From Enterobacteria phage GiZh: a DNA stretch of 64,000 bases. Positions 9,272 through 59,080 of the stretch are shown here, one piece after another; within the stretch, counting starts at the first letter, position 1, and each line of letters starts with the position of its first letter. The stretch lies in the sequence record NC_054903.1. One strand, 5' to 3'. A program made the position numbers and the translations under genes. Under the pieces are notes generated by a model that worked only from the letters and a program-made list of their open reading frames with translations, did no database searches and was not told the origin of the DNA.

Positions 9272-9544
9272 TTATTTGTTCGTATACATCTCTAGATATC
9301 GATATACACCCTCAAAACCCTCGTTGAATTCGTCGATGAGGGTTTTCTTATCTTCTTGGGTTAATTCAGAAACAATTTTACGGAATGAATTTTGATTTAA
9401 CTTTCTACCTTCATGCGTTACTCCAATCTCATTCAGAAATGCAATAAAATTAGCACGATTTTCAACAATATCTTCTCTGGAAAATTTAATCAAAATAGAC
9501 GCAACAGTAATAATTTCACGAACTGTATCAATGTTTTTATTCAT
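9272..9544 (-). CDS. asiA: anti-sigma70 factor AsiA
   Basis: 90 aa; sequence recognised (MNKNIDTVREIITVASILIKF..). Confidence 0.9.
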   Translation of the reverse strand: MNKNIDTVREIITVASILIKFSREDIVENRANFIAFLNEIGVTHEGRKLNQNSFRKIVSELTQEDKKTLIDEFNEGFEGVYRYLEMYTNK

Positions 9545-9556
9545 TAACTATACCAC

Positions 9557-9709
9557 TCAATTAGTTGACTTTGTTATAATATCATCAGACGTTTGATTTG
9601 TAAACTGGTCTGTATTATTTTCTTCAAAAATTTTTTCTACGAATTCTTTGAACGACTCACGTTCCTGAGCTACATTATGCTCGATTACTTTTTCAAGATT
9701 ATGACTCAT
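9557..9709 (-). CDS. small acidic ORF (50 aa), hypothetical
   Basis: ATG overlaps arn stop (ATGA coupling); below ORF-track size cut-off. Confidence 0.3.
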   Translation of the reverse strand: MSHNLEKVIEHNVAQERESFKEFVEKIFEENNTDQFTNQTSDDIITKSTN

Positions 9710-11363: not shown

Positions 11364-11999
11364 TCACAGTTCAGATGCTACAGTGATTACAGCTTCAATG
11401 TTTTCTACTGAGCGTTTAATGTCAAGATACACATTACCGTTTTTAGCGATTTTACATGACATTCCGATATCAGTAAATTTCTGAATATGATGTTCCATCA
11501 TTTTGTATCCAAAAATTCGCATGTTTCCATTGTTGTTAATTTCAAAATTACGAATTCCGTGAGTGCGTTTTTCTAAAATAGCGAGATAGTTACTGCGATA
11601 AGTTTCGACCTTTTTAAGAACAAATCCATTTTCATCTAAAAGTTTTAACATGAGGTCTTTATCTTCTTCCATATCAGAAGTAATCTCACGAGCTTTACGA
11701 GTTGCTCGTTTTTTCAGCAGTTCCGGAGCATTTTCCTGCGCGTATAAAGTTGCTGCGTTTGAAATAATATCCTGAGCTTCACCTGTAATGATTAATCCAT
11801 CACCAGATTTCTCCACCAGGCCTTTTTTAATCAATACCCCAATATTACTATTAACTACTGCGTTACCTAAATCTGGATGCACCTCACGAACTTCTGCAGC
11901 TGTAATGAAATCTTTCTTAGCAATGGTAATTAAAATCGCAGCAGTTTTTTCATTCAGAACATCGTTAGAAGCTTTGATGATGTAAGTTACTTTAGACAT
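11364..11999 (-). CDS. motA: middle-transcription activator MotA
   Basis: 211 aa; sequence recognised. Confidence 0.9.
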   Translation of the reverse strand: MSKVTYIIKASNDVLNEKTAAILITIAKKDFITAAEVREVHPDLGNAVVNSNIGVLIKKGLVEKSGDGLIITGEAQDIISNAATLYAQENAPELLKKRATRKAREITSDMEEDKDLMLKLLDENGFVLKKVETYRSNYLAILEKRTHGIRNFEINNNGNMRIFGYKMMEHHIQKFTDIGMSCKIAKNGNVYLDIKRSVENIEAVITVASEL

Positions 12000-12035
12000 T
12001 TTCTAATCTCCGTAATTCTGTATCAGTAGTTGATA

Positions 12036-12092
12036 GTTGTATAGTACCACAGTATGCTTTGGTTGTAAACCGTTTTGTGAAAAAATTTTAAA
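12036..12092 (-). promoter_or_regulatory. early (sigma70-type) promoter with A/T-rich UP region, -35 GTTTAC and TGG-TACTAT -10 region, upstream of motA
   Basis: GTTTAC at 12065-12070 (- strand), TACTAT about 18 nt downstream, GGAG SD before ATG 11999; same cassette recurs elsewhere. Confidence 0.6.
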
Positions 12093-12120
12093 ATAAAAAA
12101 GGGAGAGCCTCGGCTCTCCC
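12090..12120 (-). terminator. rho-independent terminator (GGGAGAGCC-GAGG-CUCUCCC + U-run)
   Basis: perfect hairpin followed on - strand by ttttttatttt. Confidence 0.65.
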
Positions 12121-12125
12121 TAAAA

Positions 12126-15037: not shown

Positions 15038-15137
15038 AATAAGCGTTTAATACATCAATCATTAAAACGATTGGGAATATACTCAAAACTACTAGTATTA
15101 TAACTACATTCCATATAGCTTTAATAATCTTTTTCAT
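15024..15137 (-). CDS. small membrane peptide (37 aa)
   Basis: ATG with GGAGGAA RBS just downstream of an early-promoter cassette; ORF-track 69-aa version would overlap the promoter. Confidence 0.3.
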   Translation of the reverse strand: MKKIIKAIWNVVIILVVLSIFPIVLMIDVLNAYFGFM

Positions 15138-15159
15138 TTTCTGTTCCTCCGTAGTTGAT

Positions 15160-15215
15160 AGGGTAATAGTACCACGGAAGAACAGTCTTGTAAACAACTT
15201 TTTAAAAATATTCGT
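15160..15215 (-). promoter_or_regulatory. early promoter cassette (GTTTAC ... TACTAT)
   Basis: repeat of the motA-type promoter sequence. Confidence 0.5.
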
Positions 15216-15379
15216 AATAAATGTGAATACCAACTACTACCGCTGAAACCTGTGCAACCCACCACGCACAAGCAATAAGTACAGAATTCAAAATTTTCAT
15301 AATAACCTCATCACAAAAGTAAATGTTAAACAAATTACTGGAATACTAATTAACCAAACAAAACACCACCATAATGAAC

Positions 15380-15643
15380 TCATAGCTCAATCTCAGCGAT
15401 TTTCATTTCATTACTATTAATAGCCTCTTTAAGACTATCTGAAAGAATTACATTCCAGTGGTCATTCATATGACCATTAACTAAGCGTGTAATTTCTTCA
15501 GGAGTTGAAAAATAAGGCTGATCAGACTCCCAATGCGATAATCCTAAGCGAGTATAAATCATGCCTTCATCATCGCTCGAATATTCAACTGACACAAACT
15601 CATCAGTTATTTTATGCTTAGCATAATAAAATTTAAATTTCAT
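15380..15643 (-). CDS. hypothetical protein (87 aa)
   Basis: start set at ATG with GGAGAG RBS downstream of promoter cassette. Confidence 0.5.
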   Translation of the reverse strand: MKFKFYYAKHKITDEFVSVEYSSDDEGMIYTRLGLSHWESDQPYFSTPEEITRLVNGHMNDHWNVILSDSLKEAINSNEMKIAEIEL

Positions 15644-15669
15644 TTTACTCTCCAAATCCGTATCAGTTG

Positions 15670-15725
15670 ATAGTTGTATAGTACCACGGTCCTTGTGGTA
15701 TGTAAACCGTTTTGTGAAAATTTTT
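15670..15725 (-). promoter_or_regulatory. early promoter cassette (GTTTAC ... TACTAT)
   Basis: near-identical to the motA promoter region. Confidence 0.5.
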
Positions 15726-16281
15726 AAATGGAAAGATACCATCCGTTGTAGTTGCTTTTTCTTACAACCTTACGAAGGTCTTCTCTGTCACCGATGAACT
15801 TCGGAGTGTACTGGATGACACCTGGATGAATTTCTTTAGTGTTGAATATAATTATACAGTCGGCGACTTGATGATTTAGAATGGGCCCTAGATTTATTCC
15901 AGAACCATATGGATACTCTCCGCTGCATCCTGTTGTTACCGAAATCCAACGTGAGTCAGTTTGATGTGTCTTAACTTCTACACGAAGCCCACAGTATTTT
16001 GGATGCGCCAATACATCCCATGCGTATGTATACGGGTCATTAACATCCTCTTGGCCTTTATTAACATACCCGCTTAGCCAATCTGCTACAAAAAATTCTG
16101 CGTACACAGCGATACGGCATCTTTCGATAACTTCTGCCTTATCCTGATTTGGATTTTGTTTTAAAGAGTATCTTGCTGTATCAGCAATTTTGACCTTCAT
16201 TTCACTAGTCAAGTCACTGTTCGATAGGGTAAATGTCGGAATCTGAAATAGTCTCTGTAAACCCGGATTCGTTTTCTGCAT
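15724..16281 (-). CDS. denB: endonuclease IV DenB
   Basis: 185 aa, same as T4 DenB; position next to rIIB. Confidence 0.8.
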   Translation of the reverse strand: MQKTNPGLQRLFQIPTFTLSNSDLTSEMKVKIADTARYSLKQNPNQDKAEVIERCRIAVYAEFFVADWLSGYVNKGQEDVNDPYTYAWDVLAHPKYCGLRVEVKTHQTDSRWISVTTGCSGEYPYGSGINLGPILNHQVADCIIIFNTKEIHPGVIQYTPKFIGDREDLRKVVRKSNYNGWYLSI

Positions 16282-16344
16282 TAAACTTTCCTTTTACGTC
16301 GGAATCACTGATATTCATACAATAAATCATAGTTTCCCTTAAAA

Positions 16345-16366
16345 CAAAAGGGCCGAAGCCCCTTAT
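16345..16366 (-). terminator. hairpin (GGGGCUUCGGCCC) + U-run
   Basis: stem-loop with UUCG loop and ttttgtttt. Confidence 0.5.
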
Positions 16367-16367
16367 T

Positions 16368-16562
16368 TTATTTGAATTGTGCAATTCTTTTTTCTAAACA
16401 CTCTGCGTAAGATTTCATTGAGATGAACTGTGAAAGTAGAAGTTCTTGCTCAACTGCACTAACTGTTAGAAACTTTGTGCTTTCTAAAAATTTGCTCAGT
16501 GCATTAATTTTGAGCATTAATTGATCGTATTCTTCTTTTACTCGTGCTTGATAACCTAACAT
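16368..16562 (-). CDS. hypothetical protein (64 aa)
   Basis: ORF between rIIB and denB. Confidence 0.5.
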   Translation of the reverse strand: MLGYQARVKEEYDQLMLKINALSKFLESTKFLTVSAVEQELLLSQFISMKSYAECLEKRIAQFK

Positions 16563-19728: not shown

Positions 19729-20001
19729 TTAATTCATATTACGTTTAATAACTTCAGCAACTTCTAGTAGTTCATCTTTAGTTGCGGTGTCGGATTGAAT
19801 TTTATCTCTAATATCTTTAAAGCGGTTTTTAAATTCTTCGGCTTCTCCCATATCGAAAAAGCGTTGAATGATTCTATATTCTCGATGAACTGCTTTATCA
19901 AAAAGTTCTAAATTTACTCTATATGATTTCATTTCAATATCCTCATTTGCCCAATTAATTATACCACATCCTTGTGTAAAGTAAACTACTGGCTCATCCA
20001 T
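19729..20001 (-). CDS. hypothetical protein (90 aa), rIIA.1-like
   Basis: ORF between gene 39 and rIIA. Confidence 0.55.
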
Positions 20002-21806
20002 TCTTTACGAAGGTCAGCATTATCTCCCATGAGCATTTCAAAAAGCTCTTTCCAATTCTCAGGAAGTTTAACAACATCATATACTGGATTTTGAATCATC
20101 TCACGATATTCAGATTTTTCCAAAGAGCCAAGTCCCTTAATATAACGGATGCTATGTTTAGGTAGAGCATCTTTGGCACTCTCATATTCAGCGACTGTAT
20201 AAAACCATTCTTGTTTTTTACCGACCTGAGCGATGATTACAGGAGTTTTGACAAAGCGAATTCGTCCTTGCTCAAACAATTCTGGCCAATTACTAAAAAA
20301 TCCGAGCAGAGAAGGATAAATGCTTCCTAGACCATCATGGTCAGCATCAGTCATAATAGCAATATTGCGATAATTCAAGTTTTCAGCTTTTTCACCAAGA
20401 ACTAGACCAGTGATTGCGCAAATATCAAATAGTTCTTTGTTTTTAAGCATATCGGCATATGACATACCCCAGCTATTAAGAACTTTACCGCGCAATGGAT
20501 AACCACCATGAAGTTCTTTATCGCGAACATCAATAAGATATCCGATAGCTGAATCACCCTCAGTCAAGAACAATGTAGTGTCAGCATCTTTACCGCAAAG
20601 ATTCGCTTTAATATGTTTATGAACCTTAGCTTTAGAAGCCTTTTTAGCTGCTTTAGTTTCTGCTGCTTTTTCTGCCGCCAATTTACGAGCCAAAGCAGCT
20701 TCAATAATCGGCATCAGAATTGCTTCATTATTTAGAATAGCGCGTGAAATCTTTTTAGCGTCAAGTTGAATATGACTACGAATTTCGCCAAATGGAGAAG
20801 TCAAACGCTCTTTAGTTTGAGAATCAAATCGCATGTTTTTCATATCACGAACAAACATAACGATAGTCAAACATTCTTTAACGCGTGCTTTAGTTACATC
20901 AATTTTGAACTTACGTTTGATTTGTGGAATAAGGTCTTCACAAATATCATCCATAACACAGTCAATGTGATGGCCACCATTCTTAGTATGAATGTTATTG
21001 ACGTATGTTAATTGACGAAAACCATCCGGTGAACGACCAACCGCAATAGAACAATTTTCTTGTTCTTGAACGATAGCATGTTCATCATATTGGCGTGCGT
21101 ATTTCTTAAAATTACCCTGAACCTTTTTACCATTAAAGGTAAATTGAATATCAGGATAAACAACAGCAAGTGTTTGGAGACGATCTAGTGTAATGTCAAG
21201 ATAAACTTGGGACAGCTCATTAGTTTCAAATGACATAAAATCAGGAATGAAAGTAACACGGGTTCCTTTCCATTTTCCAGGAATATCTTCCCATGATTTA
21301 TTTTCCATGCCGTTTGAACAACGAACTACAATATTATTTTGACCATCACCAGTTTCACCGACAAACATCACAGAAAAAATGTTTGTCAAACTAGAACCAA
21401 CACCATTCATACCACCGGTGACGCGTTCTTTATCATCACCGAAGTTACCACCTGCTTTTGGAATAGTCCACGCAGCAACAGGACCAGGAATTTCTTCACC
21501 GGTAGGTGTTTTAACCATCGCCTGTGGAATACCACGACCGTTATCTTCAACTGTTACTTGATTATTTTTAATAGTAACATTAATTTTATTCGCGAATTTA
21601 AACTTAGTACGAATACCTTCATCTACTGAGTTATCGATAATTTCATCAATAAGCTTAACAAGACCAGGTACATACTGAACACTTTCCCATTTACCAAACA
21701 GAAAGCGCTCATGCATTTCATTAGCTGAAGAGCCAATGTACATGCCGCTACGCTTTTTGATATGTTCAATATCGCTCAGAATTTTAATTTCATTCTTAAT
21801 CATCAC
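19986..21806 (-). CDS. 39: DNA topoisomerase II large (ATPase, GyrB-like) subunit, uninterrupted 39/60 form
   Basis: 606 aa single ORF; GHKL ATPase and TOPRIM-like motifs; T4 splits this into 39 + 60 with a translational bypass. Confidence 0.9.
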   Translation of the reverse strand: MMIKNEIKILSDIEHIKKRSGMYIGSSANEMHERFLFGKWESVQYVPGLVKLIDEIIDNSVDEGIRTKFKFANKINVTIKNNQVTVEDNGRGIPQAMVKTPTGEEIPGPVAAWTIPKAGGNFGDDKERVTGGMNGVGSSLTNIFSVMFVGETGDGQNNIVVRCSNGMENKSWEDIPGKWKGTRVTFIPDFMSFETNELSQVYLDITLDRLQTLAVVYPDIQFTFNGKKVQGNFKKYARQYDEHAIVQEQENCSIAVGRSPDGFRQLTYVNNIHTKNGGHHIDCVMDDICEDLIPQIKRKFKIDVTKARVKECLTIVMFVRDMKNMRFDSQTKERLTSPFGEIRSHIQLDAKKISRAILNNEAILMPIIEAALARKLAAEKAAETKAAKKASKAKVHKHIKANLCGKDADTTLFLTEGDSAIGYLIDVRDKELHGGYPLRGKVLNSWGMSYADMLKNKELFDICAITGLVLGEKAENLNYRNIAIMTDADHDGLGSIYPSLLGFFSNWPELFEQGRIRFVKTPVIIAQVGKKQEWFYTVAEYESAKDALPKHSIRYIKGLGSLEKSEYREMIQNPVYDVVKLPENWKELFEMLMGDNADLRKEWMSQ

Positions 21807-21830: not shown

Positions 21831-21858
21831 ATTATACTCCGGTAATCATAAAGCTAAA
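21831..21858 (-). promoter_or_regulatory. putative MotA-dependent middle promoter (AGCTTTA box, 12-nt spacer, TATAAT) upstream of gene 39
   Basis: - strand reads ttAGCTTTA-N12-TATAAT; same arrangement recurs at 54435..54459. Confidence 0.4.
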
Positions 21859-21872
21859 GGCCCGAAGGCCTT

Positions 21873-22142
21873 TTATTTAAAACGAATAGTTGAATCCTTA
21901 AAGAACAGCCCAGAACATACTGTTCCTTCTACTTTCTGCCCGGTAGGTCCAATAGCACGAAATCCAGTATGTTGGAAATCATTTTCAGAACAACCGAACC
22001 AGTTATATCCAGTGATTTCAATATTAGTAAAACCGCTTGAAGATAAAACTTTGGTTGCATTATCAGCATCAGTACATCCTACTAAAGACACTGTTAATAC
22101 TAATGCTGCAATAGAACGATTAATATATTTCATAATTTTCAC
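21873..22142 (-). CDS. small lipoprotein (89 aa)
   Basis: signal peptide ending in lipobox LVGC. Confidence 0.6.
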   Translation of the reverse strand: MKIMKYINRSIAALVLTVSLVGCTDADNATKVLSSSGFTNIEITGYNWFGCSENDFQHTGFRAIGPTGQKVEGTVCSGLFFKDSTIRFK

Positions 22143-23345: not shown

Positions 23346-23615
23346 TTAATTAAACATTGGAGCGATACGTTTCAGAAGAGTAGCAGCACCTTTAGCGAAT
23401 TTTACATCATGAAAAACAGTTTCTTCTTCTGTAACAACTCGAACTTTAATATTTTCACAATCCCAATTTTTACGAACAATCTTCAAAAGCTGCAGTAAAT
23501 CTTTACATTCAGCAATATCGATAACACATCCACGAGAATCTTCCATTATCGCACGATAACCGTAAGCCATACCATAATCATTAAAAGATTGCTCGATGAT
23601 AATTAAGTTTTCCAT
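23346..23615 (-). CDS. hypothetical protein (89 aa)
   Basis: start chosen at ATG with GGAGAA RBS downstream of promoter cassette. Confidence 0.5.
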   Translation of the reverse strand: MENLIIIEQSFNDYGMAYGYRAIMEDSRGCVIDIAECKDLLQLLKIVRKNWDCENIKVRVVTEEETVFHDVKFAKGAATLLKRIAPMFN

Positions 23616-23633
23616 TTTATTCTCCAAGTTTTT

Positions 23634-23700
23634 CTGTATCAGTAGTTGATATTGATATAGTACCATAATCAACTACTGATGTATATAGTTTTATGAAAAA
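23634..23700 (-). promoter_or_regulatory. early promoter cassette variant with A/T-run UP element
   Basis: shares the conserved leader CAACTATCAACTACTGATACAG. Confidence 0.45.
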
Positions 23701-23725
23701 AAAAAAATTTAAACTTTATGCAAAT

Positions 23726-24145: not shown

Positions 24146-24154
24146 AATAATTCC

Positions 24155-24628
24155 TTAAGCTTTACGAGGAGAAGCATAACGAGTGATTTCAGATTCTTCA
24201 ACAACCCGGAAGTCACCTAAGAATACGATATTGTAGAGCTTTTCACCATCTTCAACCCATTGGTCTGTGATGAAGCCACACATCCTATCAGTTTTACTTG
24301 GACCAGCGAAATCATCAATATAATCGAATTCTTCATCAGTTACAAATTCAACGCCTTTACACAACGCCCATTTAAATTGTGTATTAGACTCAGTGGATTC
24401 AACTTCTTCAACAGAAGCAAAATGAGAGCTAACACGAGTTTCCAGAAATTTAGGACTTACGTAAGCGTACTGAGTTTCAGTTTTTCCAGAACTAGGAATG
24501 ATTCGAACTTTAACTTCTTTAACACGACCAGTACCATTAGTACGAAGTCCTACCACTTCAACTAGACGACCTGCAGCTTTAGAACGAGATGCAGACGATA
24601 CACGCTTAATTTCACCGATAGTAATCAT
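24155..24628 (-). CDS. paralog-family protein B (157 aa)
   Basis: start set at ATG 24628 (ORF-track 24673 lacks RBS); SASRSKAAGRLVEV and DQWVEDGEKLYNIVF motifs. Confidence 0.6.
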   Translation of the reverse strand: MITIGEIKRVSSASRSKAAGRLVEVVGLRTNGTGRVKEVKVRIIPSSGKTETQYAYVSPKFLETRVSSHFASVEEVESTESNTQFKWALCKGVEFVTDEEFDYIDDFAGPSKTDRMCGFITDQWVEDGEKLYNIVFLGDFRVVEESEITRYASPRKA

Positions 24629-24700
24629 AATTTTTCTCTCTTTGTTGTTAAGATTTATACTCCGCAGGACCATTATACTCTGGTCCCAAGAGTTTGTAAA

Positions 24701-25138
24701 CTAGCTTACACGAACATTAATCACTGCGCTGCGAGGAACTACAGAGTACTCTCCAGCATGAACTACGTTCAGAAGTTCAACACCATCTTCAATCCACTGA
24801 TCAGTCACCCATCCACCCACAGGATTCGCGAATGGACGACGAATATAAACTGCCTTACACAGCAGATCAGTTGGATCTTCAGGTTTTTCAATTTCTGTCA
24901 ATAGACTAAAATCTTTTTCATAAATAATAAGCGGTGATACCATTCCATAATAGTTTCTAATTTCAATATACATCATACCGATAAGAATTCCGCTATTAAC
25001 ACTAATAACAGTAAAAGGATATCCGCCAGTTAAACCAAGAAGTTCACAAAACTTATTATGAGCTGTATTAGACAGTACCGAAAAATTCTTAATTTCATCA
25101 AATTTTTTCAATTGATAAACAGCATTATTTTTAATCAT
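24701..25138 (-). CDS. paralog-family protein C (145 aa; shares only the C-terminal motif)
   Basis: C-terminal TDQWIEDGVELLNVVHAG. Confidence 0.55.
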   Translation of the reverse strand: MIKNNAVYQLKKFDEIKNFSVLSNTAHNKFCELLGLTGGYPFTVISVNSGILIGMMYIEIRNYYGMVSPLIIYEKDFSLLTEIEKPEDPTDLLCKAVYIRRPFANPVGGWVTDQWIEDGVELLNVVHAGEYSVVPRSAVINVRVS

Positions 25139-25148: not shown

Positions 25149-25652
25149 TTAATCTAAGGTAATAAAGCCTTTTAATTCGGCATGGGATTTACGGAACATT
25201 ACTTGGTGCCCGCCAATGATAACTTGATCATCTGGAACTTCGTATACAGCAAGATAAAATCCTTTAGAAGATAATTCTTCACGCTCTTCTCGTGTGAACC
25301 ATCTCATCATATCATATTCACTAGCAAAAGCAAAATGATAAAGAGCTATAAACCATCCGGGAATATAATGATCTACGCCTACATATTCTTCTTTCTCAAA
25401 GTTAGTATTAATTGCTATATTAGCATTTTTAACTAATAATTTGTCTTCGTGTGGAAGAGGAATTCTTTTATTATCATTACTATGATGCATAAAATTAGGT
25501 CTGTCATAACCTACGTGTAATAACCACTCTTCGCTCCATGAATCTATTATACTCCTGTATGGCGTTATTTGAACACAAAGATCTCGACGTATTGTTATAG
25601 CATCTTCATAATTAAGAATACTAAACGATGATTCAACACGATAAATTTTCAT
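25149..25652 (-). CDS. hypothetical protein (167 aa)
   Basis: start at ATG with GAGGA RBS downstream of promoter cassette. Confidence 0.55.
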   Translation of the reverse strand: MKIYRVESSFSILNYEDAITIRRDLCVQITPYRSIIDSWSEEWLLHVGYDRPNFMHHSNDNKRIPLPHEDKLLVKNANIAINTNFEKEEYVGVDHYIPGWFIALYHFAFASEYDMMRWFTREEREELSSKGFYLAVYEVPDDQVIIGGHQVMFRKSHAELKGFITLD

Positions 25653-25669
25653 TTTATTATCCTCAGTAG

Positions 25670-25725
25670 CTATGGTGTTATAGTACCACAACTAACCGAG
25701 GAAGTAAACAACTTTTTATCGTTTT
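25670..25725 (-). promoter_or_regulatory. early promoter cassette
   Basis: GTTTAC ... GGTACTAT arrangement. Confidence 0.45.
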
Positions 25726-26399
25726 GTTGGAAGAGATAGAGGATCGCAATCTTCCTCTGATGGAGCATCTTCAAGACCCATAGCATATCGCAAAGCATAC
25801 TTCATCATCAGGATGTCTTTCGCACAGTCATGAATAGAATCATGTGCAACGAATCCATCTAAAGTTCCCTTTGGAAGAGGACATGTGGTCATATCACGAA
25901 CAAGCAAAAGTGCTTCAATTCTAGTACGAATATCACGTTGATTCCAGAATTTACATGGTTCTAACTTAAATGTGTCAAGTTCATTCTCGGAAACGCCGTT
26001 AAGACGCTGAATATCGCGAATGAGATCGACTAAAATTGGAAAATCAAACGACATTCCACGGCACCAGCCTTGAGATTTCCAAGGATCGATGTTATGTGCA
26101 TTGATGTAATCATTAAATTTTGCAATACCATCGATAGTGCTTACATCTTCATCTGATGGCGCAATATTTTTTCGAGCTTCAGGAGATTGATTCTTCCACC
26201 ATTCGATAGTGCTTTTAGTAAAAAGACGATGTCCTTTTTGGCTTTTTAAATCAAATTTGATTTTAATGCCACGTGAAACTAATTCATCAAATGTTTCAAC
26301 GACTTCTGGGTTAGGGTCAAAAGCAATTACAGCCAAATCAATAACAGCTGCTTTTTCACCGCTTCCCATTGTTTCAAAATCTATAATAAAATCAAACAT
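25716..26399 (-). CDS. dexA: exonuclease A DexA (DnaQ-like 3'-5' exonuclease)
   Basis: 227 aa, same as T4 DexA; DEDD-type motifs (FDFETMG). Confidence 0.85.
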   Translation of the reverse strand: MFDFIIDFETMGSGEKAAVIDLAVIAFDPNPEVVETFDELVSRGIKIKFDLKSQKGHRLFTKSTIEWWKNQSPEARKNIAPSDEDVSTIDGIAKFNDYINAHNIDPWKSQGWCRGMSFDFPILVDLIRDIQRLNGVSENELDTFKLEPCKFWNQRDIRTRIEALLLVRDMTTCPLPKGTLDGFVAHDSIHDCAKDILMMKYALRYAMGLEDAPSEEDCDPLSLPTKR

Positions 26400-27126: not shown

Positions 27127-27132
27127 ATAGCC

Positions 27133-28761: not shown

Positions 28762-29508
28762 TTATCCTCGGATAAGTTTAAAAATTGAACAATTTAGCGG
28801 GTATCCTCTTTTCAGTTTAAGTTTATCAATAAAAGACAAGTTTTGATACCGCTCTACACCTTGAATAATTTTATCACACATATCATATTGCATTTCTGCT
28901 TCTGACAACTTTTTCACAATTTTCCAATCCGAGCCTTTAAGAAGAACGTTCAGTTTAACAACTTCAGCGCCTTCTGCTATGCGAGAACCATCAATACGAG
29001 CTTTAAGTGCTATAATCCTTAGCTTAATGTCAGAGGTCTGTTTTGATTTAGAAAGCTGAGAAATATGTTCAATTCGATTTTCACGCTTTTTCTGTATAGC
29101 TTTAATTTGATTATAAGTCTTTTTGATTTTAGCCCATTTCTTTTCATCTAAATTTAGTTTATGAACTTTTTTCGCAGATGAACGACCAATTCGCAAAGCA
29201 AATAAATCCCGTTTTTCAATCAACTCTTCTAAAGTATAATCAGAACGAAATGTATTATACTTTTTCTTTACTGCAATAACATTCCCTTTAATGTATCCAA
29301 TGTTATTATCAAAACGTTCTAATGATAATTTCTCTCCTTCAATACGATTATCAAAAGGTTCTCCCGAGTAAGCACAAACTTTTTGATCTAAAATGTTCTT
29401 AATGTAATTGAAGTCTAAGTTAAAATCTTTAGAACGTCTTTTTGCAGATGCCTGAGTATGCTCTAAACGACGTTTAATTTTACGAATTTGGTTATTAGAC
29501 AGCTTCAT
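28762..29508 (-). CDS. srd: basic protein (248 aa), Srd-like by position
   Basis: Lys/Arg-rich; located between dda and modA/modB. Confidence 0.4.
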   Translation of the reverse strand: MKLSNNQIRKIKRRLEHTQASAKRRSKDFNLDFNYIKNILDQKVCAYSGEPFDNRIEGEKLSLERFDNNIGYIKGNVIAVKKKYNTFRSDYTLEELIEKRDLFALRIGRSSAKKVHKLNLDEKKWAKIKKTYNQIKAIQKKRENRIEHISQLSKSKQTSDIKLRIIALKARIDGSRIAEGAEVVKLNVLLKGSDWKIVKKLSEAEMQYDMCDKIIQGVERYQNLSFIDKLKLKRGYPLNCSIFKLIRG

Positions 29509-29631
29509 ATTTTTCTCACATCTTACGGACGGTTAACTACTTATACTATAACATTTTTACTTTAACTTGTAAACAACTTTATGTAAAAATGCTTTAAAAA
29601 TTTCATGGTATAATGAATCTAAGTCCTTCCA

Positions 29632-30234: not shown

Positions 30235-30854
30235 TCAACTACCTCAATATCATAAACTTTAAATGTTCCAAATGAATCGTGTAATTTTTCTTTTGAAATA
30301 GAAGTTATTCTATACTTTCCAATTGGAATCATCCATTCTTGTTCATGTACAATCATCATTAAGTTATCAGTTCTTTCTGAATCTAACCCATCAGTATCTT
30401 CATACGTGTACTTAAACTCAGTATTAGGAGAAGAAAGTATAATATCGCTGATATGGTCAGAATAATTAAAAGCTTTATCAGTTTTTAAGCGAAGTACTAT
30501 TTCAGTGAAATATTCATCATAAGAAAAAGAACACGCTGTATGCAAACTAGTAGTAAATGAATCTACCCTGTTCGTTGAAAACACTTCTCCAACTTGCAAA
30601 TCTTTAATAAGTTCTTTTGTCGATTTTGATATACCACGATATAATTGATAAGGCGATTTAGTTAAATGCTTTTTAATGATTTTATTCAACTGTCTGTGAA
30701 GAGCTTCATTCTTTTTGGCTTCCATACATTGCCAAAGAACAGACTGCTCAAAGTCAGTAAATTTTTCACAGACTTTTTTATACATATCATATTGAAAATC
30801 AACGCTTTCAGCTTTTATAGATAACTGTTCAACATCTACAGGATTAATAATCAT
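30231..30854 (-). CDS. modB: ADP-ribosyltransferase ModB-like
   Basis: 207 aa; tandem with modA. Confidence 0.6.
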   Translation of the reverse strand: MIINPVDVEQLSIKAESVDFQYDMYKKVCEKFTDFEQSVLWQCMEAKKNEALHRQLNKIIKKHLTKSPYQLYRGISKSTKELIKDLQVGEVFSTNRVDSFTTSLHTACSFSYDEYFTEIVLRLKTDKAFNYSDHISDIILSSPNTEFKYTYEDTDGLDSERTDNLMMIVHEQEWMIPIGKYRITSISKEKLHDSFGTFKVYDIEVVE

Positions 30855-30921
30855 GATAGCCTCCGTATACTTCAGAAGCTATCATATCATCGTTAGAAAG
30901 GAAAGTAAACAACTTTTTGAA

Positions 30922-31104
30922 TTATTTTGCCCAGGGAGCCCAAGGCGGAGGGTCAAGATGGTATGAAGCTAGTTCTTCTAGAAGAGCATCTGGGGCTTCA
31001 ATTCCATAATTCTGTAATACTATACGGTACTCTTTCTTATAATCACTAGAATCATTCTGGTTATTCGTAGAATGATTATCTTCTAACATCTCAAATAAAT
31101 CCAT
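30922..31104 (-). CDS. hypothetical protein (60 aa)
   Basis: ORF. Confidence 0.4.
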   Translation of the reverse strand: MDLFEMLEDNHSTNNQNDSSDYKKEYRIVLQNYGIEAPDALLEELASYHLDPPPWAPWAK

Positions 31105-32750: not shown

Positions 32751-32962
32751 TACAAAAAGCCTCTTTGAAATTCGACTCTTTGAAATCCACCCCAGTCAGT
32801 ATATCGCATTTCAGCATTGAACTCGACTGAACCATCTGCATGCATCATGAATGAATGCGTGACGACATCACAATCCCAGCTTTTCATACCCCATTTATCA
32901 GAGATAGCTTTATCAAGAACCTTCTGAAGGTCTTCATTTGGTTTAATCCAACGATTTAACAT
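32750..32962 (-). CDS. hypothetical protein (70 aa)
   Basis: ORF. Confidence 0.5.
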   Translation of the reverse strand: MLNRWIKPNEDLQKVLDKAISDKWGMKSWDCDVVTHSFMMHADGSVEFNAEMRYTDWGGFQRVEFQRGFL

Positions 32963-33060
32963 AGTGTTCTCCTCTATAAGATATTTTTATTATACCACAC
33001 TCATTTTGACATGTAAACCATAAAATGAAAAAAGGAATCCCGAAGGATTCCTTAAATTAT

Positions 33061-33318
33061 TTAACCACCTACACCAGGTGTAGGTGTAACAGTCCAAAGA
33101 CCTTCATTAGCAGTGATCCATTCAGTACGCTGATTTTCTTCATATACTGTAGAATATGCTGCTTTTTCAGAAGGGAATGTCTGATAATGAGCACCAGAAA
33201 TTTTGTGAACATCAGAATAAAGAGGGAAAGCTACAGAAATTTCTTTACCCTGAATTGTACCACCATCAACTGCTTGGTCAAATGTTTTGATATTAACATA
33301 ACCGCGAGTACTAGCCAT
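33061..33318 (-). CDS. soc: small outer capsid protein Soc
   Basis: sequence recognised (MASTRGYVNIKTF...AFPLYSDVHKISGAHYQTF); 85 aa vs 80 in T4. Confidence 0.85.
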   Translation of the reverse strand: MASTRGYVNIKTFDQAVDGGTIQGKEISVAFPLYSDVHKISGAHYQTFPSEKAAYSTVYEENQRTEWITANEGLWTVTPTPGVGG

Positions 33319-35713: not shown

Positions 35714-35760
35714 ATTAACCTCTATTCATAAAAGCATTAAAAATTTGGTCATCAATAGAT
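35711..35760. repeat. ~50-bp direct repeat copy 1 (3' end of 118-aa gene and downstream)
   Basis: about 48/51 identical to 36069..36118. Confidence 0.8.
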
Positions 35761-36706: not shown

Positions 36707-37000
36707 TTATTCGCCTGTGATTTCGGTTACGATATTTTTGTTATTAAAGTTTTTATCGCAATACAGAACATAATTATACTGCATTACACCACCAGACTTA
36801 AGCTGTTTTTGTACTTCAGCTTTCATTTCAGGACGATCGCGCTCAACGATATTCATAATATCCGCTTCAATTTGAGTTTCAACTTCAGTCTGATCTGCAG
36901 TCATAGACCATTCACACAAATCTTTATCATAGCCTGCCATAGCAGGCTGAGCAGCACAAGAAGCCAAAGTAAAAATTGTAGCAAAAATAAATTTTTTCAT
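36707..37000 (-). CDS. sp: Spackle (Sp), periplasmic superinfection-exclusion / lysozyme-inhibitor protein
   Basis: 97 aa with signal peptide; same length and position as T4 sp. Confidence 0.8.
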   Translation of the reverse strand: MKKFIFATIFTLASCAAQPAMAGYDKDLCEWSMTADQTEVETQIEADIMNIVERDRPEMKAEVQKQLKSGGVMQYNYVLYCDKNFNNKNIVTEITGE

Positions 37001-37060
37001 GATAATCTCCTCAGTAGTTTATGTTTATATAGTATCTCAATTTCCAACAAAAGTAAACAG

Positions 37061-37318
37061 CTATTTTAAAACTTCTGCGTAATCACATGTTACAAACTGT
37101 TTCTCTAGCTTAACGATTTTACGAAAATGCCTTTTACACTGACGAATCTGCCTCTTCGTAGGACGTACAACAAACTTAATAAATTCCACTCGACCAAATG
37201 GAGGACTTTCTTCTGCTGGAATATCTAACACCAATTCCCATGTATCCGCAATAAGCGCTTTGAATTGCGTATTTTTCCTGACGTTATACGGAGTAGGTTT
37301 AAATAAAACAATATGCAT
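37061..37318 (-). CDS. hypothetical basic protein (85 aa), positional equivalent of T4 61.4
   Basis: immediately upstream of dmd. Confidence 0.5.
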   Translation of the reverse strand: MHIVLFKPTPYNVRKNTQFKALIADTWELVLDIPAEESPPFGRVEFIKFVVRPTKRQIRQCKRHFRKIVKLEKQFVTCDYAEVLK

Positions 37319-37319
37319 A

Positions 37320-37502
37320 TTATCCTCGGCAATCTACTTCACATACTTTCTTGTCATCAATGAAAGCTTTAACTAATGCTTTATTAACTTCAGCATATTG
37401 AGTAGTAGCCCATTGAACGTCATCTTTCATCATTGTGATTTCTTTAGTAAACATGCTTTCATTCTTAAACCACCCCATAAAAACTACCTTTACCAATTCC
37501 AT
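37320..37502 (-). CDS. dmd: Dmd, inhibitor of host RnlA/LsoA toxins
   Basis: 60 aa; sequence recognised. Confidence 0.85.
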   Translation of the reverse strand: MELVKVVFMGWFKNESMFTKEITMMKDDVQWATTQYAEVNKALVKAFIDDKKVCEVDCRG

Positions 37503-37560
37503 AACAATCTCCTCATTTAACCAACAAGACTACTATACCATAGTCTTGTCAGCTTGTAAA

Positions 37561-38988
37561 CTAAAATTTTAATTCATTTGCCAAAGCATCTAACTGAGCT
37601 CGAGCGGATTCGTTTCTTTGATAGCGATTCTGTTCAGCCTGAATCTGCTGTGAACCTGCTACTTCGTTCACTTCAGTTGGAGTAGAATCTTGTTCAATTT
37701 CTACCCATTTTTGATTTCCTTTTTGAACACCCATCAAAAACTTATTCCACTTATTCTTATCACCATATCGTGATTTGATTTGCTTAATAAGTTGTTGTTC
37801 AGCAGCTGCCAACTCCTCGGTTTCAATGACCGCAAGCATAAAATCGGCTGTCGCTGGAAGACCAGCAGATTCTGCGATATCACTCATGTTAACATCAGAA
37901 GAATCCCAAGCTTGTTTACCAACCTGTGCTGCAGTCCAAAGAACAGTTTCGGTTTCAACAGCAAGAGCACGCAATTCCTCTGCAATAGCTTTAACAGTTG
38001 TGTAACTATTTTCTGAATAAACTCTAATGCGGCAAGATTTACAAATACCTAGATAGTCGACAATAATGATTGTTGGAACAAAATTCTTTTTGAGCTTCAA
38101 TTCATTCAAGAGAGACCTGAATGTGTTAGCATCTGCTCCACCAGTAGGGTACTGTTTAACGATTAAACGACCAAGAGTAGATTTCTCACGCCATTTTTCC
38201 ATTTTTCCTTTATACTCAGCGTAAGAAATATGTCCATCATCAATATCGTCAAGAGAAACATCGAGCATGTTAGCATCAATACGTTTAGCACAGACTTCTT
38301 CTGCCATTTCCATGGAAATGTAAAGAACATTATGTCCGAGCTGTAAATAATCTGCTGCCAATGAACACAATCCTAATGACTTACCAACGTTAACGCCAGC
38401 CATTAAAACGTTCAGCGTTCCAGTTTCAGCTCCGCCTTTCGTAATTTTGTTTAGAATTCTGAGTTTAAATGGAACCTTACGAGCTTTATTCATATAAGAT
38501 AGCCAACGTGCTTCGTAGTCATCCATCCAATCATGACCAACGTAGCTATCAAATGAAATTGATAATGCTTGACGCATGATGTCAGGAATAGCACCAACAT
38601 CCGGCATTTTCTTATTTCGTTTTTCCGGAGGAAGCTCAGCATTAGTTTGAATTTCGATTATTTTAGACGTAGCATTAAACATCGCCCTTTGCTGAACATA
38701 TTTTTCTGTTTCTTTTACTAACCAGCTGTGGTCTTCTGGAGAATCGGCTAGTTTTGAAATAAGTGTTTTTACACCAGAATATTCCGTTTCAGTAAATGAA
38801 CTATTTTCTAATGCAACATTTAACGCATTAATAGATGGAACGCTATGATACTCATTAACATGAGATTTAATTAATTTGAATGTATTTTTAGCTGGACCAC
38901 TTTCAAAATATTCTGAATCCATATATGGCCAAACTTTTGAAAAATAAGCTTGATCAAATATGAGATGAGAAAGAATAATTTCTACCAC
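37561..38988 (-). CDS. 41: replicative DNA helicase gp41 (DnaB-like)
   Basis: 475 aa, same as T4 gp41; Walker A GVNVGKS. Confidence 0.9.
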   Translation of the reverse strand: MVEIILSHLIFDQAYFSKVWPYMDSEYFESGPAKNTFKLIKSHVNEYHSVPSINALNVALENSSFTETEYSGVKTLISKLADSPEDHSWLVKETEKYVQQRAMFNATSKIIEIQTNAELPPEKRNKKMPDVGAIPDIMRQALSISFDSYVGHDWMDDYEARWLSYMNKARKVPFKLRILNKITKGGAETGTLNVLMAGVNVGKSLGLCSLAADYLQLGHNVLYISMEMAEEVCAKRIDANMLDVSLDDIDDGHISYAEYKGKMEKWREKSTLGRLIVKQYPTGGADANTFRSLLNELKLKKNFVPTIIIVDYLGICKSCRIRVYSENSYTTVKAIAEELRALAVETETVLWTAAQVGKQAWDSSDVNMSDIAESAGLPATADFMLAVIETEELAAAEQQLIKQIKSRYGDKNKWNKFLMGVQKGNQKWVEIEQDSTPTEVNEVAGSQQIQAEQNRYQRNESARAQLDALANELKF

Positions 38989-42978: not shown

Positions 42979-43215
42979 TCAAATGCAAGTAGTAATTACT
43001 CCAGTAGTGCTTATGCAGGTATTACCCATTTGCACACCTAAAGATCCATTTGTATTCACATGAAGATTATCATCAATTTTAACTGATATTTTACCATTAG
43101 TGTGAATAACGGTGCTAGATTCAATCACAGGTTGAGTATCATTTTCAACACTAACAAATGGAACTGCTGCTAATGCAACTAAACAAACTGCTAAGCATCC
43201 CATAACAATTTTCAT
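42979..43215 (-). CDS. secreted/envelope protein (78 aa)
   Basis: signal peptide; start at ATG with GGAGAA RBS. Confidence 0.5.
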   Translation of the reverse strand: MKIVMGCLAVCLVALAAVPFVSVENDTQPVIESSTVIHTNGKISVKIDDNLHVNTNGSLGVQMGNTCISTTGVITTCI

Positions 43216-43244
43216 TTTATTCTCCAAATCTGTATCAGTAGTTG

Positions 43245-43305
43245 ATAGTTGTATAGTACCATGGAAGAACAGTCTTGTAAACAGTTTTGTGAAAATTTTT
43301 TAGGG
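43245..43305 (-). promoter_or_regulatory. early promoter cassette
   Basis: GTTTAC at 43277-43282 (- strand) and GGTACTATAC; conserved leader. Confidence 0.55.
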
Positions 43306-43360
43306 AATTCTAAAGGTCCAGAATCATCTGTTTTTCATAAGTATAGATTTATATTACTTG

Positions 43361-46135: not shown

Positions 46136-46153
46136 ATATATTATACTCCAAAT

Positions 46154-46171: not shown

Positions 46172-46173
46172 GC

Positions 46174-58747: not shown

Positions 58748-58922
58748 GGAGTTTAATTTCCTTAGCAACTGAACTAAATACAGCACGATCACAAATCATG
58801 TGTTTATGTAACTTGAGTATAATATAGCAAACTTCAAAACTATTTACATGAGTAACACGAACAGCATTACCATTAATGAGATAATACTGTCCCTTTTTAA
58901 TTTCTTTATCAACCACAACCAT
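58740..58922 (-). CDS. hypothetical protein (60 aa)
   Basis: ORF downstream of promoter cassette at 58945..59005. Confidence 0.4.
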   Translation of the reverse strand: MVVVDKEIKKGQYYLINGNAVRVTHVNSFEVCYIILKLHKHMICDRAVFSSVAKEIKLHG

Positions 58923-58944
58923 ATCAATTCCTCAAAGGTAATTC

Positions 58945-59005
58945 ATGTGTTAATAATACCACAGTTTGAGCTCGTTGTAAACAACTTTGTGAAAATTATT
59001 TTAGG
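58945..59005 (-). promoter_or_regulatory. early promoter cassette (GTTTAC ... TGGTATTA)
   Basis: shares the UP/-35 block of the other cassettes. Confidence 0.4.
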
Positions 59006-59080
59006 GAATGATAAGAAGGGAACGATAGCTTAGAATGGTAATATACAGAATGTAAGAAAGAAAGGCCCAGAGGGCCCGTC

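Follow-up and report, generated by a model that had tools for sequence, protein, structure and literature searches.

T4-type early-promoter cassettes in phage GiZh and the proposed start-site block of their TACTAT subclass

The early promoters of phage T4 were reportedly catalogued by Liebig and Rueger in 1989, by Wilkens and Rueger, and by Miller et al. in 2003. A later review (Hinton 2010, PMC2988021) notes that their consensus has further regions in addition to the -35 and -10 elements, and also mentions T4 P8.1, one of the T4 promoters characterised by experiment. Early promoters of T4 relatives prefer C at positions -3 to -1 (PMC1524935), and T4 Pe41, Pe40.4 and Pe35.3 have been confirmed by primer extension (PMC6024815). 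No promoter features are annotated in record AF158101, and a literature search found no genome-wide T4 transcription-start data set.

Cleavage by RegB/S1 is a published route by which T4 early mRNAs are inactivated (Uzan & Miller 2010, PMC3014915); its consensus is GG*AGRAYARAA, cut between G and A (PMC3014915). The shuffling of early genes by repeats is likewise a published idea, that of the PeSLs (Arbiol 2010, PMC2839356; Comeau 2014, PMC4122927). Stem-loops overlapping the -10 element have been described in PeSLs, and the T-even elements are held to be analogues, not homologues, of the RB49/phi1 PeSLs (Arbiol 2010, PMC2839356). The PeSL cassettes of the PST/T4 pair follow the consensus TTTACW-N17-TAYWAT, and the ndd.4/ndd.5 region is among those authors' own examples (PMC4122927).

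The DNA analysed here (hereinafter designated the window) is a 64,000-nt stretch of Enterobacteria phage GiZh (NC_054903.1), which sequence comparison places with the T4-like phages (Tequatrovirus) at ~98% identity to T4, and its early genes lie on the minus strand. A generic sigma-70 scan is uninformative in this AT-rich genome (80 sites, 82.7 expected), and a T4-specific pattern was therefore adopted. GTTTAC-N18-TAnnnT occurs 15 times in the window compared with 0.93 +/- 0.92 times in shuffles, every match being on the minus strand, that is, the coding strand of the early genes. The top direct-repeat family returned by a repeat finder (D1, 65 nt) has six copies, at 12023, 15148, 15660, 23639, 43235 and 58935. 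An earlier reading of the letters without database searches (hereinafter the sequence-only reading) had proposed a recurrent early promoter-leader cassette at nine positions, and a promoter-like cassette is indeed present on the minus strand at all nine, although two of the ranges it gave (29560-29600 and 30895-30925) cover the UP/-35 part only. The nine sites are orthologues of the T4 early promoters of motA, ndd.4, ndd.6, cef, motB.2, srd, modB, imm.1 and 55.6, and in T4 correspond to intergenic DNA ahead of early genes, at 93-99% identity; P8.1 was assigned to motB.2 by its map-coordinate name. The T4 early consensus, the correct orientation and this orthology all bear out the interpretation as early promoters. 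At least six more lie beyond the original list (asiA 9581, rIIA.1 19963, motB 24677, mrh.2 32994, sp 37034 and dmd 37537), as do sites at 52925 and 58513, orthologous to T4 Pe35.3 and Pe40.4 respectively.

In a formal alignment of the cassettes the -35 and -10 columns are invariant, with GTTTAC(A) and TAnnnT at sigma-70 spacing (17 bp from TTTACA to the -10). The cef-position -35 is a variant also present in the T4 orthologue (Table 1). Upstream of the -35, the A/T tract of most copies includes (T)TTTCACAAA(AC/GT)N. TGG or TGT extends the -10 in 10 of the 15 cassettes, and an SD and ATG are reached 19-37 nt from the predicted start in all 15. The TACTAT -10 hexamer ascribed to the whole family is that of the leader-type sites, with srd, modB and 55.6 each having another hexamer. 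The cassettes resemble described T4 early promoters in UP element, -35 GTTTAC, TGn, -10, orientation and place upstream of early genes, and differ in nothing essential: only a TACTAT subclass, marked by a UP sequence and a start-site block of its own, is set apart here, a subclass not spelled out in the papers examined, older promoter catalogues aside. The repeated element is the already-described strong early promoter of T4-type phages, and the leader is a feature of one subclass.

Table 1 Early-promoter cassettes of the window and their parts.
Feature	Coordinates	Strand	Basis	Details	Stem-loop (dG; z)
Intrinsic terminator hairpin	12100..12121	-		AGGGAGAGCC-GAGG-CTCTCCCT then T-run; 9 pairs, 6 GC	-21.1; -4.0
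motA early promoter	12041..12099	-	alignment + pattern	orthologous to T4 163,6xx upstream of motA, 99.5% identity
motA UP	12071-12099	-		A/T-rich with TTTTTCACAAAAC
motA -35	12065-12070	-		GTTTAC, then 18-nt spacer
motA TGG and -10	12041-12049	-		TGG + TACTAT
motA start-site block	12026..12040	-		ACAACT followed by ATCAACTAC; predicted -6..+9; predicted +1 = A at 12034
Remaining motA 5'UTR, SD and ATG	11997..12025	-		5'UTR TGATACAGAATTAC
motA SD	12008-12011	-		GGAG; GGAGATTAGAA fits RegB/S1 consensus 10/11
motA start codon	11997-11999	-		ATG
imm.1-position cassette	43213..43309	-	repeat + alignment	full leader type; SD GGAGAATAAAA, 11/11
ndd.6-position cassette	15641..15734	-		leader type; 3-nt leader deletion, ..CAACTGATACGG..
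cef-position cassette	23613..23713	-		leader type; -35 ATATAC	-20.2; -7.6
ndd.4 cassette	15135..15222	-		short leader variant; TACTAT + TACCCTATCAACTAC then GGAGG	-12; -1.8
motB.2 cassette (T4 P8.1 orthologue)	25650..25736	-		TACTAT + AACACCATAGCTACTGA + GGAT SD	-23.1; -6.2
sp (spackle) cassette	36998..37085	-		partial leader; TACTAT + ATAAACATAAACTACTGA + GGAG; newly listed
srd early promoter	29506..29601	-	repeat family D5	-10 TATAGT; UP/-35 only, no leader block
modB early promoter	30852..30937	-	alignment + pattern	-10 TATGAT; no leader block
55.6 early promoter (T4 Pe41 orthologue)	58920..59009	-		-10 TATTAT; UP TTTTCACAAAGTT; no leader block
asiA early promoter	9542..9632	-		newly listed
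mrh.2 early promoter	32960..33089	-		newly listed	-26.4; -6.8
dmd early promoter	37500..37588	-		newly listed	-18.9; -5.8
motB early promoter	24626..24728	-		GGGACC/GGTCC on either side of -10; newly listed	-16.8; -3.5
rIIA.1 early promoter	19930..20014	-		spacer 1 base shorter; newly listed

The hairpin upstream of the motA promoter forms the stem-loop part of that cassette, is predicted to end the upstream motA.1/52 transcript, and carries a terminator annotation in phage e11/2. Three of the full leader cassettes are predicted to drive ORFs that are not intact in T4: a 78-aa ORF at the imm.1 position (42979-43215, phrog_4189; missing from T4), an 87-aa ORF at the ndd.6 position (15380-15643, phrog_2390; deleted) and an 89-aa ORF at the cef position (23346-23615, phrog_3720; truncated).

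The conserved transcribed leader, proposed for all copies, is confined to seven promoters, each with a TACTAT -10. It is full-length at four (motA and the imm.1, ndd.6 and cef positions), partial at three (ndd.4, motB.2 and sp), and absent at srd (29550), modB (30886) and 55.6 (58958), which have only the UP element, the -35 and part of the -10 in common with the family. Exact copies of the 22-nt leader CAACTATCAACTACTGATACAG are limited to 12018-12039 and 43230-43251; a further copy, at 23634-23655, has three mismatches. A looser form of the block, TACTAT + N5-YATMRMYWR, identifies six sites in the window compared with 0.04 expected, only after TACTAT, with a related form at 25685. Genome-wide, ~15-16 TACTAT promoters of T4 carry the block, corresponding to ~40% of its early promoters, and no copy of the motif was found outside a TACTAT -10 context in T4 intergenic DNA. 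Members of the subclass usually have the UP sequence TTTTCACAAAAC, and the block, AcAACT followed by ATCAACTAC, comes directly after the -10.

The +1 positions in this phage were placed by analogy with T4 promoter map units: the published starts of T4 Pe35.3, Pe40.4 and Pe148.6 (PMC6024815 map units) lie 7 nt after the -10 hexamer, which would put +1 on the A of ATCAAC. The leader block then spans predicted positions -6 to about +9, namely the discriminator and the first ~9 transcribed bases. This predicted span is within reach of RNA polymerase at a promoter, which bears on the contention that the leader goes beyond what a promoter needs, as far as its strongly conserved part is concerned. 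NAD-capping was set aside as a lead: it prefers a purine at -1, a position at which the block has T.

The block always lies equally far from the -10; its distance to the SD varies, the predicted 5'UTR being 21 to 35 nt long. Among TACTAT promoters, the 15 nt that follow the -10 show an identity of 0.52-0.70, compared with 0.30-0.38 in other early promoters, and the UP region 0.57-0.59 compared with 0.38-0.40; mean pairwise identity of the spacers is 0.31-0.34 within the class and 0.33-0.34 among unrelated early promoters. The core CCTATCAA lies at the same offset from the -10 in promoters of Mosigvirus, Dhakavirus and Jiaodavirus, and orthologous motA leaders of other genera differ outside this start-site core. 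A literature search with the leader sequence itself returned only unrelated papers. Because the block adjoins the -10, its distance to the SD varies, the spacers have diverged, the core recurs in other genera and the RNA is unstructured, we take the block to belong to an extended promoter and start site.

Farther downstream, a GGAG-containing SD had been assigned to every copy; it is present at six of the nine listed sites, the other three having no GGAG. The RegB/S1 consensus is matched at 11/11 positions in the cef- and imm.1-position cassettes, at 10/11 in motA and the ndd.6 position, and at 8/11 in ndd.4 and sp, while the motB.2 SD is a GGAU variant with all seven following positions in agreement. 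In the MFE structures the SDs of the seven leader cassettes are unpaired. As in published RegB/S1 sites (PMC3014915), an intergenic GGAG or GGAU in an early SD is followed by an A-rich stretch in unpaired RNA; the likeness, known here from sequence, covers the 3' module of the cassette only and not the block after the -10. The GGAG SDs, as predicted RegB targets, are consistent with the published consensus. The window stops near T4 48.3 kb and does not reach regB (T4 62.3 kb).

Two cases show that cassettes have exchanged sequence. The cassette at the imm.1 position is a mosaic, with a UP like that of motA and ndd.6, a spacer like that of ndd.4, and a leader like that of motA, with which it has an exact 33-nt run in common although the two loci are 31 kb apart. 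This identity could reflect recent exchange rather than selection. In another phage the ndd.4 cassette carries the spacer end and discriminator of that phage's own nrdC.8 cassette, a conversion tract. An identical 21-nt core precedes at least eight different genes in T4-like contigs, and a scan of IMG/VR with this core yielded just 20 stretches, all in a few T4-like contigs, which served to count downstream genes but not to gauge breadth. Within genomes, the best paralogue identity reaches 94-100% in three of the five compared, whereas orthologous cassettes of the window and of Mosigvirus/Dhakavirus are 62-69% identical. Three of ~20 breakpoints between the window and T4 fall exactly at the 3' edge of leader-type cassettes, in a setting where indels survive mainly in intergenic DNA anyway; the ORFs at these three indels fall into PHROGs families without an assigned function. 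A crossover within the promoter, on the PeSL model, was considered as the cause of the indels and rejected because the junctions are 4-8-nt start-codon microhomologies, not within the promoter or leader. The sequence-only reading had also named the repeats as potential recombination substrates, which the mosaic cassettes and one clear conversion tract support and the three indel junctions do not. The direct case for the promoter/leader repeat itself as a crossover site consists of that one conversion tract and the literature.

Like PeSLs, the window sites are repeated composites in which an AT-rich stretch and an early promoter lead into an SD and start codon; they occur in plastic regions, ahead of small ORFs without an assigned function and near indels between related phages, and they fit the PST/T4 consensus. 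They differ in that a stem-loop, frequent in PeSLs, is clear in only about half of them, and in that the indels join at start-codon microhomologies and not between two full cassettes. Stem-loops are clear at motA and mrh.2, as upstream terminators, and around the -10 at the cef position, motB.2, dmd and motB; that of ndd.4 is marginal, and none is significant at the imm.1 and ndd.6 positions, sp, srd, modB, 55.6, asiA or rIIA.1. Upstream of the mrh.2 promoter lie two strong hairpins, one of them the terminator GGAATCC-TTCG-GGATTCC. Mosaic cassettes, one conversion tract and cassette-edge indels together fit the published PeSL shuffling model.

Other explanations of the conserved leader have to be weighed against an extended start site. 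The sequence-only reading suggested a shared RNA element, which could be either a structured motif acting in cis or a 5'UTR site where a protein or sRNA binds and co-regulates these early mRNAs, and conservation does extend past the -10, with a weak 4-bp AUCA..UGAU hairpin predicted in some copies. The 3-nt deletion in the ndd.6-position copy breaks this hairpin, however, and the seven leaders fold no better than shuffles (MFE 0 to -4.7 kcal/mol, z -0.39 to +1.14). Rfam at gathering thresholds gives zero matches in the whole window, the block is fixed to the -10 while its distance from the SD varies by ~15 nt, it never precedes an SD that has no TACTAT promoter, and motA leaders of other genera differ except in the start-site core, all of which makes an RNA element extremely improbable. 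An operator at or just after +1, bound by a phage or host protein such as a factor that shuts off early promoters, would suit a shut-off whose mechanism is stated to be not understood (PMC3014915; PMC2988021). The block is placed where a repressor would obstruct RNA polymerase, and two inverted copies flank the -10 at the cef position, but shut-off is general and the block is found in only ~40% of T4 early promoters, its palindromy is limited to ATCA..TGAT, and no candidate protein was identified. IHF, with the consensus WATCAANNNNTTR, was tried and discarded: TATCAACTACTGA, read directly from the sequence, misses the TTR. We consider an operator highly improbable. It is also very unlikely that the block, TACTAT and the UP sequence define a distinct early-promoter class with a dedicated recognition element, for example a target of shut-off or of Alt/ModA-ADP-ribosylated RNA polymerase, in place of a generic start-site context.

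In T4, the lysozyme gene e, gene 49 and I-TevI are controlled by promoters placed in hairpins, such that read-through transcripts fold and conceal the SD. By this logic the leader would be the 3' arm of a hairpin with its 5' arm in the spacer, read-through RNA hiding the SD and RNA from the cassette's own promoter leaving it open. Hairpins around the -10 are predicted at motB.2, the cef position, dmd, motB and ndd.4 (Table 1), where, as in the classical cases, the spacer can pair with the start region or SD and the -10 lies in the loop. At the cef position the spacer CATCAGTAGTTGAT and the leader ATCAACTACTGATG are reverse complements, giving a 13-bp inverted repeat around the -10; at motB.2 the spacer is complementary to leader and SD; and at dmd the repeat ACAAGACT/AGTCTTGT lies on either side of the -10. 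Perfect inverted repeats of at least 7 bp surround the -10 in 11/34 T4 early promoters compared with 2.5% of mismatched-partner controls, and stem-loops overlapping the -10 are known from PeSLs (Arbiol 2010). The SD lies inside the stem at motB.2 and ndd.4 but outside it at the cef position and dmd, and the best-conserved leaders, at motA and the imm.1 and ndd.6 positions, have no such hairpin (z -1.2, +0.5 and -0.7), so that this reading covers a subset of cassettes and not the conservation of the block. Unlike the classical cases, which are late promoters within early transcripts, the promoters concerned here are early and only a subset. Concealment of the SD is a tentative account of the leader, possible but unlikely. 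If instead no selection acted on the leader, its similarity would be the footprint of recent duplication or gene conversion (concerted evolution), for which the mosaic cassettes with their 33-nt run, the conversion tract, the excess of paralogous over orthologous identity and the PeSL literature all speak; such copying probably explains the extended tail TGATACAG and the exact identities. Yet identity in the spacers, flanked by the conserved -35 and the -10/leader, is no higher than background, which implies that whole-cassette copying is old or incomplete while the block has been kept, and the CTATCAA core holds its -10 offset in three other genera. Absence of selection is thus decidedly improbable.

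Very probably, the repeats as a whole are T4-type early-promoter cassettes in which the block belongs to the promoter and start site, the SD is of RegB type, and the cassettes serve as PeSL-like linkers. Host sigma-70 RNA polymerase would transcribe from these promoters as soon as infection begins. Each compact cassette is predicted to run from an optional upstream terminator or stem-loop through an A/T-rich UP, -35 GTTTAC(A), spacer and TGn + -10 to an unstructured 5'UTR of 20-35 nt, which leads by way of a GGAG-type SD to the ATG of an early gene, usually a small one. The block may be kept for its part in open-complex formation, start-site choice and escape, and also as giving an open, A/C-rich 5' end, although ~60% of the early promoters of T4 lack it and are strong nonetheless. 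Sequence exchange among cassettes would account for the longer tail and the exact identity of some copies. The SD module GGAGAAUAAAAUG, by its match to the RegB/S1 consensus, is a putative cleavage target, and the cassettes, as short dispersed homologies beside small accessory ORFs, may behave like PeSL shuffling linkers. The analysis establishes the anatomy of the cassettes, their non-random occurrence, their orthology to T4 promoters, the absence of RNA structure in the leaders, differential conservation, mosaicism and one conversion tract; from sequence we infer that the promoters are active in this phage, where +1 lies, that the block acts in initiation and that RegB cuts the SDs.

The analysis mainly confirms textbook T4 biology, in which strong early promoters, leaders and RegB-sensitive ribosome-binding sites drive host take-over, and under the PeSL model the dispersed short homologies of the cassettes also help to shuffle accessory genes. 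Its modest addition is to set apart the TACTAT subclass, with a start-site block conserved while the spacers have been randomised. The TACTAT block thereby offers a concrete and cheap target for promoter swaps addressing initiation, escape, and sensitivity to Alt/ModA or to early-promoter shut-off.

By its sequence, the repeated element of the window is a real, non-random feature, and it corresponds to the early promoter already known from T4, in an equally known cassette arrangement; the phage that carries it is 98% identical to T4. T4 and its closest relatives (Tequatrovirus) show 97.8-98.0% identity to a 3-kb stretch around the element, and the window runs on the T4 reference AF158101 from ~151.7 kb through the map origin to ~48.3 kb. 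The element lies on the minus strand, the strand of the region's early genes. The T4-specific pattern GTTTAC-N18-TAnnnT has 15 matches, none of them on the plus strand, where shuffled sequence gives 0.93 +/- 0.92, and the top direct-repeat family returned by a repeat finder is the cassette, with six 65-nt copies. A generic sigma-70 scan of this AT-rich DNA was uninformative (80 sites vs 82.7 expected).

The sequence-only reading had proposed a repeated promoter-leader cassette at nine sites. All nine carry the promoter and are positional orthologues of T4 intergenic regions upstream of early genes (motA, ndd.4, ndd.6, cef, motB.2, srd, modB, imm.1 and 55.6); at least six additional early promoters (asiA, rIIA.1, motB, mrh.2, sp and dmd) and the orthologues of T4 Pe35.3 and Pe40.4 had escaped that listing. 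The leader is less regular than proposed: it is missing at srd, modB and 55.6, whose -10 hexamers are other than TACTAT, and of its 22-nt form just two copies are perfect (12018-12039 and 43230-43251), the one at 23634 having three mismatches. What is conserved is a looser block after TACTAT, found at six sites compared with 0.04 expected, with a related form at 25685. Salmonella phage STML-198 (database match H80), which lies outside the close T4 group, shares 90% identity over the 51-nt -10/leader core at 15642-15692, with no match over the rest of the 1.1-kb query.

Cassette features in the window
Feature	Position	Strand	Remark
motA terminator hairpin AGGGAGAGCC-GAGG-CTCTCCCT + T-run	12121-12100	minus	
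motA UP region, A/T-rich tract including TTTTTCACAAAAC	between terminator and -35	minus	
motA -35 GTTTAC	12070-12065	minus	
motA spacer	between GTTTAC and TGG-TACTAT	minus	18 nt
motA TGG + -10 TACTAT	12049-12041	minus	
motA leader ACAACTATCAACTACTGATACAGAATTAC	after -10	minus	followed by SD
motA SD GGAG	12011-12008	minus	
ATTAGAAA, then ATG opening motA	ATG at 11999	minus	
Inverted repeat around -10, cef position	23639-23686	minus	
Inverted repeat around -10, motB.2	25660-25702	minus	3' arm includes SD
Inverted repeat around -10, dmd	37515-37555	minus	
Inverted repeat around -10, motB	24650-24693	minus	
Inverted repeat around -10, ndd.4	15142-15180	minus	3' arm includes SD
87-aa ORF, phrog_2390	15380-15643	minus	directly behind ndd.6-position cassette
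78-aa ORF, phrog_4189	42979-43215	minus	directly behind imm.1-position cassette
89-aa ORF, phrog_3720	23346-23615	minus	directly behind cef-position cassette

The counterpart of the motA-upstream hairpin in phage e11/2 bears a terminator annotation. Elsewhere in the window, an intergenic hairpin family, AAAGGGCC-GAAG-GCCCTTT, occurs at 16340-16369, 21849-21878, 46147-46176, 48317-48346 and 54453-54482; on the coding strand it reads as a terminator with a GGGC(C)-UUCG-G(G)CCC tetraloop hairpin and a T-run behind it, the C(UUCG)G type of hairpin that is classical for T4.

Across the whole T4 genome, the -10 is TACTAT in ~15-16 of roughly 40 early promoters, nearly all of which run on into AcAACTATCAACTAC or TACCCTATCAAC, and the block motif is never found without a TACTAT -10 in T4 intergenic DNA. 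Mean pairwise identity in the TACTAT class and in other early promoters, respectively, is 0.57-0.59 and 0.38-0.40 in the UP region, 0.31-0.34 and 0.33-0.34 in the 14-nt spacer, 0.52-0.54 and 0.30-0.38 in the 6 nt after the -10, and 0.68-0.70 and 0.30-0.32 in the next 9 nt. Copying of whole cassettes would homogenise the spacer too, and the diverged spacer, at background identity, sits between a conserved -35 and a conserved -10/leader; the similarity is therefore not simply that of young duplicates. The pattern points to a TACTAT subclass that can be set apart and whose start-site block is under selection, a small refinement of the more recent accounts compared here.

Published map units of three T4 early promoters (Pe35.3, 35,662; Pe40.4, 41,225; Pe148.6, 150,727; PMC6024815), set against the first bases of their -10 hexamers (35,674, 41,237 and 150,739), place the start at the 7th base after the hexamer. 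By transfer from these promoters, we infer that +1 in the window is the A of ATCAAC, which makes ACAACT the discriminator (-6 to -1) and ATCAACTAC positions +1 to +9; A occupies the predicted +1 in 7/7 TACTAT promoters. The block keeps a fixed distance from the -10, and its distance to the SD changes with the length of the predicted 5'UTR (21-35 nt), an arrangement that argues for a function belonging with the promoter or with the 5' end of the RNA rather than with the ribosome-binding site. RNA polymerase at a promoter reaches positions up to about +20, and escape at strong phage promoters is influenced by transcribed-region sequence. T4 early promoters have further consensus regions besides UP, -35, TGn and -10 (PMC2988021), and C is favoured at -3 to -1 in relatives' early promoters (PMC1524935).

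Folding of seven leaders, each taken from its predicted +1 to within the first codons, gave 0 to -4.7 kcal/mol (z -0.39 to +1.14). Their sole recurrent pairing, a 4-bp AUCA/UGAU stem, is lost through a 3-nt deletion in the ndd.6-position copy, and Rfam at gathering thresholds returned no match across the whole window. The suggestion of a shared RNA element thus finds support in neither search, and the leader is best described, on these predicted folds, as an open, A/C-rich, G-poor 5'UTR. The 3' module of the leader fits the strong RegB/S1 site consensus, GG*AGRAYARAA (PMC3014915), with 11/11 bases matching in the cef- and imm.1-position copies and 10/11 in those of motA and the ndd.6 position; the motB.2 SD is a GGAU variant, and the regB gene lies outside the window. 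The proposal of the GGAG SDs as candidate RegB targets repeats published work and is consistent with the sequence.

Many early promoters contain an inverted repeat between spacer and start region, with the -10 hexamer in the loop. Around the -10, 11/34 T4 early promoters have a perfect repeat of 7 bp or more, vs 2.5% of controls, in which spacers and start regions were paired between different T4 promoters. On this basis the leader might instead be the 3' arm of a hairpin that hides the SD in upstream read-through RNA and leaves it open in the cassette's own transcript, much as T4 gene e and gene 49 have SDs hidden in read-through and exposed in own-promoter transcripts. Predicted folding energies of -17 to -23 kcal/mol (z -3.5 to -7.6) were obtained for the window's cef-position, motB.2, dmd and motB cassettes; in the motB.2 and ndd.4 hairpins the SD belongs to the 3' arm and would be masked in a read-through transcript. 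However, the best-conserved leader copies (motA, imm.1 position and ndd.6 position) have no -10 hairpin, and block conservation is left unexplained; the modelled hairpins would explain a subset of cassettes.

Stem-loops overlapping the -10 are listed among the PeSLs, the promoter-early stem-loop cassettes of T4-type phages, which combine a repeated AT-rich region, early promoter, stem-loop and SD/ATG, precede small ORFs in hyperplastic regions and serve as the linkers through which modules are shuffled (Arbiol 2010, PMC2839356). The T-even elements were termed analogues by Arbiol et al. themselves (PMC2839356), and the model was carried over to PST and T4 (consensus TTTACW-N17-TAYWAT), the ndd.4/.5 region being among the published examples (Comeau 2014, PMC4122927). 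The window cassettes resemble PeSLs in their repeated promoter and SD/ATG before small ORFs near indels, but differ in that only about half have a significant stem-loop, so that membership, as originally defined, is partial.

That the repeats are recombination substrates, as also proposed, repeats this published work, and the sequence is consistent with it in part. In favour, the imm.1-position cassette is a mosaic, with a UP region like motA/ndd.6, an SD like ndd.6/cef, a 21-nt run (-35 and most of the spacer) identical to ndd.4 and 33 nt exactly in common with motA. In the T4-like IMGVR_UViG_2974742932_000001 (IMG/VR stretches L027 vs L015), the spacer end and discriminator within the ndd.4 cassette are those of the phage's own nrdC.8 cassette, and both flanks are still ndd.4: a gene-conversion tract between cassettes whose loci the T4 map separates by ~113 kb. 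Across T4-like contigs, the identical 21-nt core stands upstream of no fewer than eight different genes. Three window-vs-T4 breakpoints coincide precisely with the 3' edges of leader-type cassettes, where the three ORFs of the table, members of PHROGs families without assigned function, are deleted or truncated in T4, leaving the mini-ORFs MKIAEIEL* and MENSLKVLILF*; at the ndd.6 position the ORF-containing form is commoner (418/503 records). A crossover inside promoter or leader was rejected as the origin of these indels: the junctions instead are 4-8-nt start-codon microhomologies (AAATGAAA, ATGAAAAT), and the downstream partner is no second full cassette. Perfect homology between cassettes is short (<=33 nt).

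Other differences from T4 were also observed. Breakpoints lie at 20321/20386, 33356/33772, 34293/34314, 40504/41451, 55669/55694, 60190/60170 and 61466/61469; mobA/60.1, segF, dam, mobB, mobC and the nrdD intron with I-TevII are missing, and ~950 bp of unrelated sequence (40505-41450) replaces segA and beta-glucosyltransferase, so that most T4 homing-endonuclease genes of the region are absent. Insertions of 220-875 bp at 46178-46396, 49041-49915, 53699-54292, 22136-22507 and 26902-27132 are intergenic in the replication-gene cluster (43/regA, 45/rpbA, 47/a-gt, 39.1/39.2 and dda/dexA.2). A 49-nt direct repeat (94% identity; 35711-35759 and 36069-36117) containing a gene start (SD + ATG, minus) flanks a ~310-bp segment missing from T4, which looks like a tandem duplication or an insertion via translation-start homology. 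Diverged tandem repeats in and around motB (23757-24819; spacings 429, 495 and 537 bp; just 77-79% identity to T4) point to two or three motB-like paralogues in tandem.

The motA surroundings (24-41 kb) were compared in four other genera, represented by Jiaodavirus KP179, Mosigvirus phage 55, Dhakavirus JS10 and Kanagawavirus CIP9. GTTTAC is kept in the early promoters of all four, and (C/T)(C/T)TATCAA recurs at an unchanged -10 offset in many promoters of KP179, phage 55 and JS10. In the 16 nt that follow the motA -10, the Mosigvirus and Dhakavirus orthologues are 62-69% identical to the window, whose own best paralogue is 100% identical; the Klebsiella and Enterobacter phages have a different type. 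As read from these alignments, the block is a deep start-site core with lineage-specific extensions, the latter closer within a genome than between orthologues, which is the signature of exchange among cassettes.
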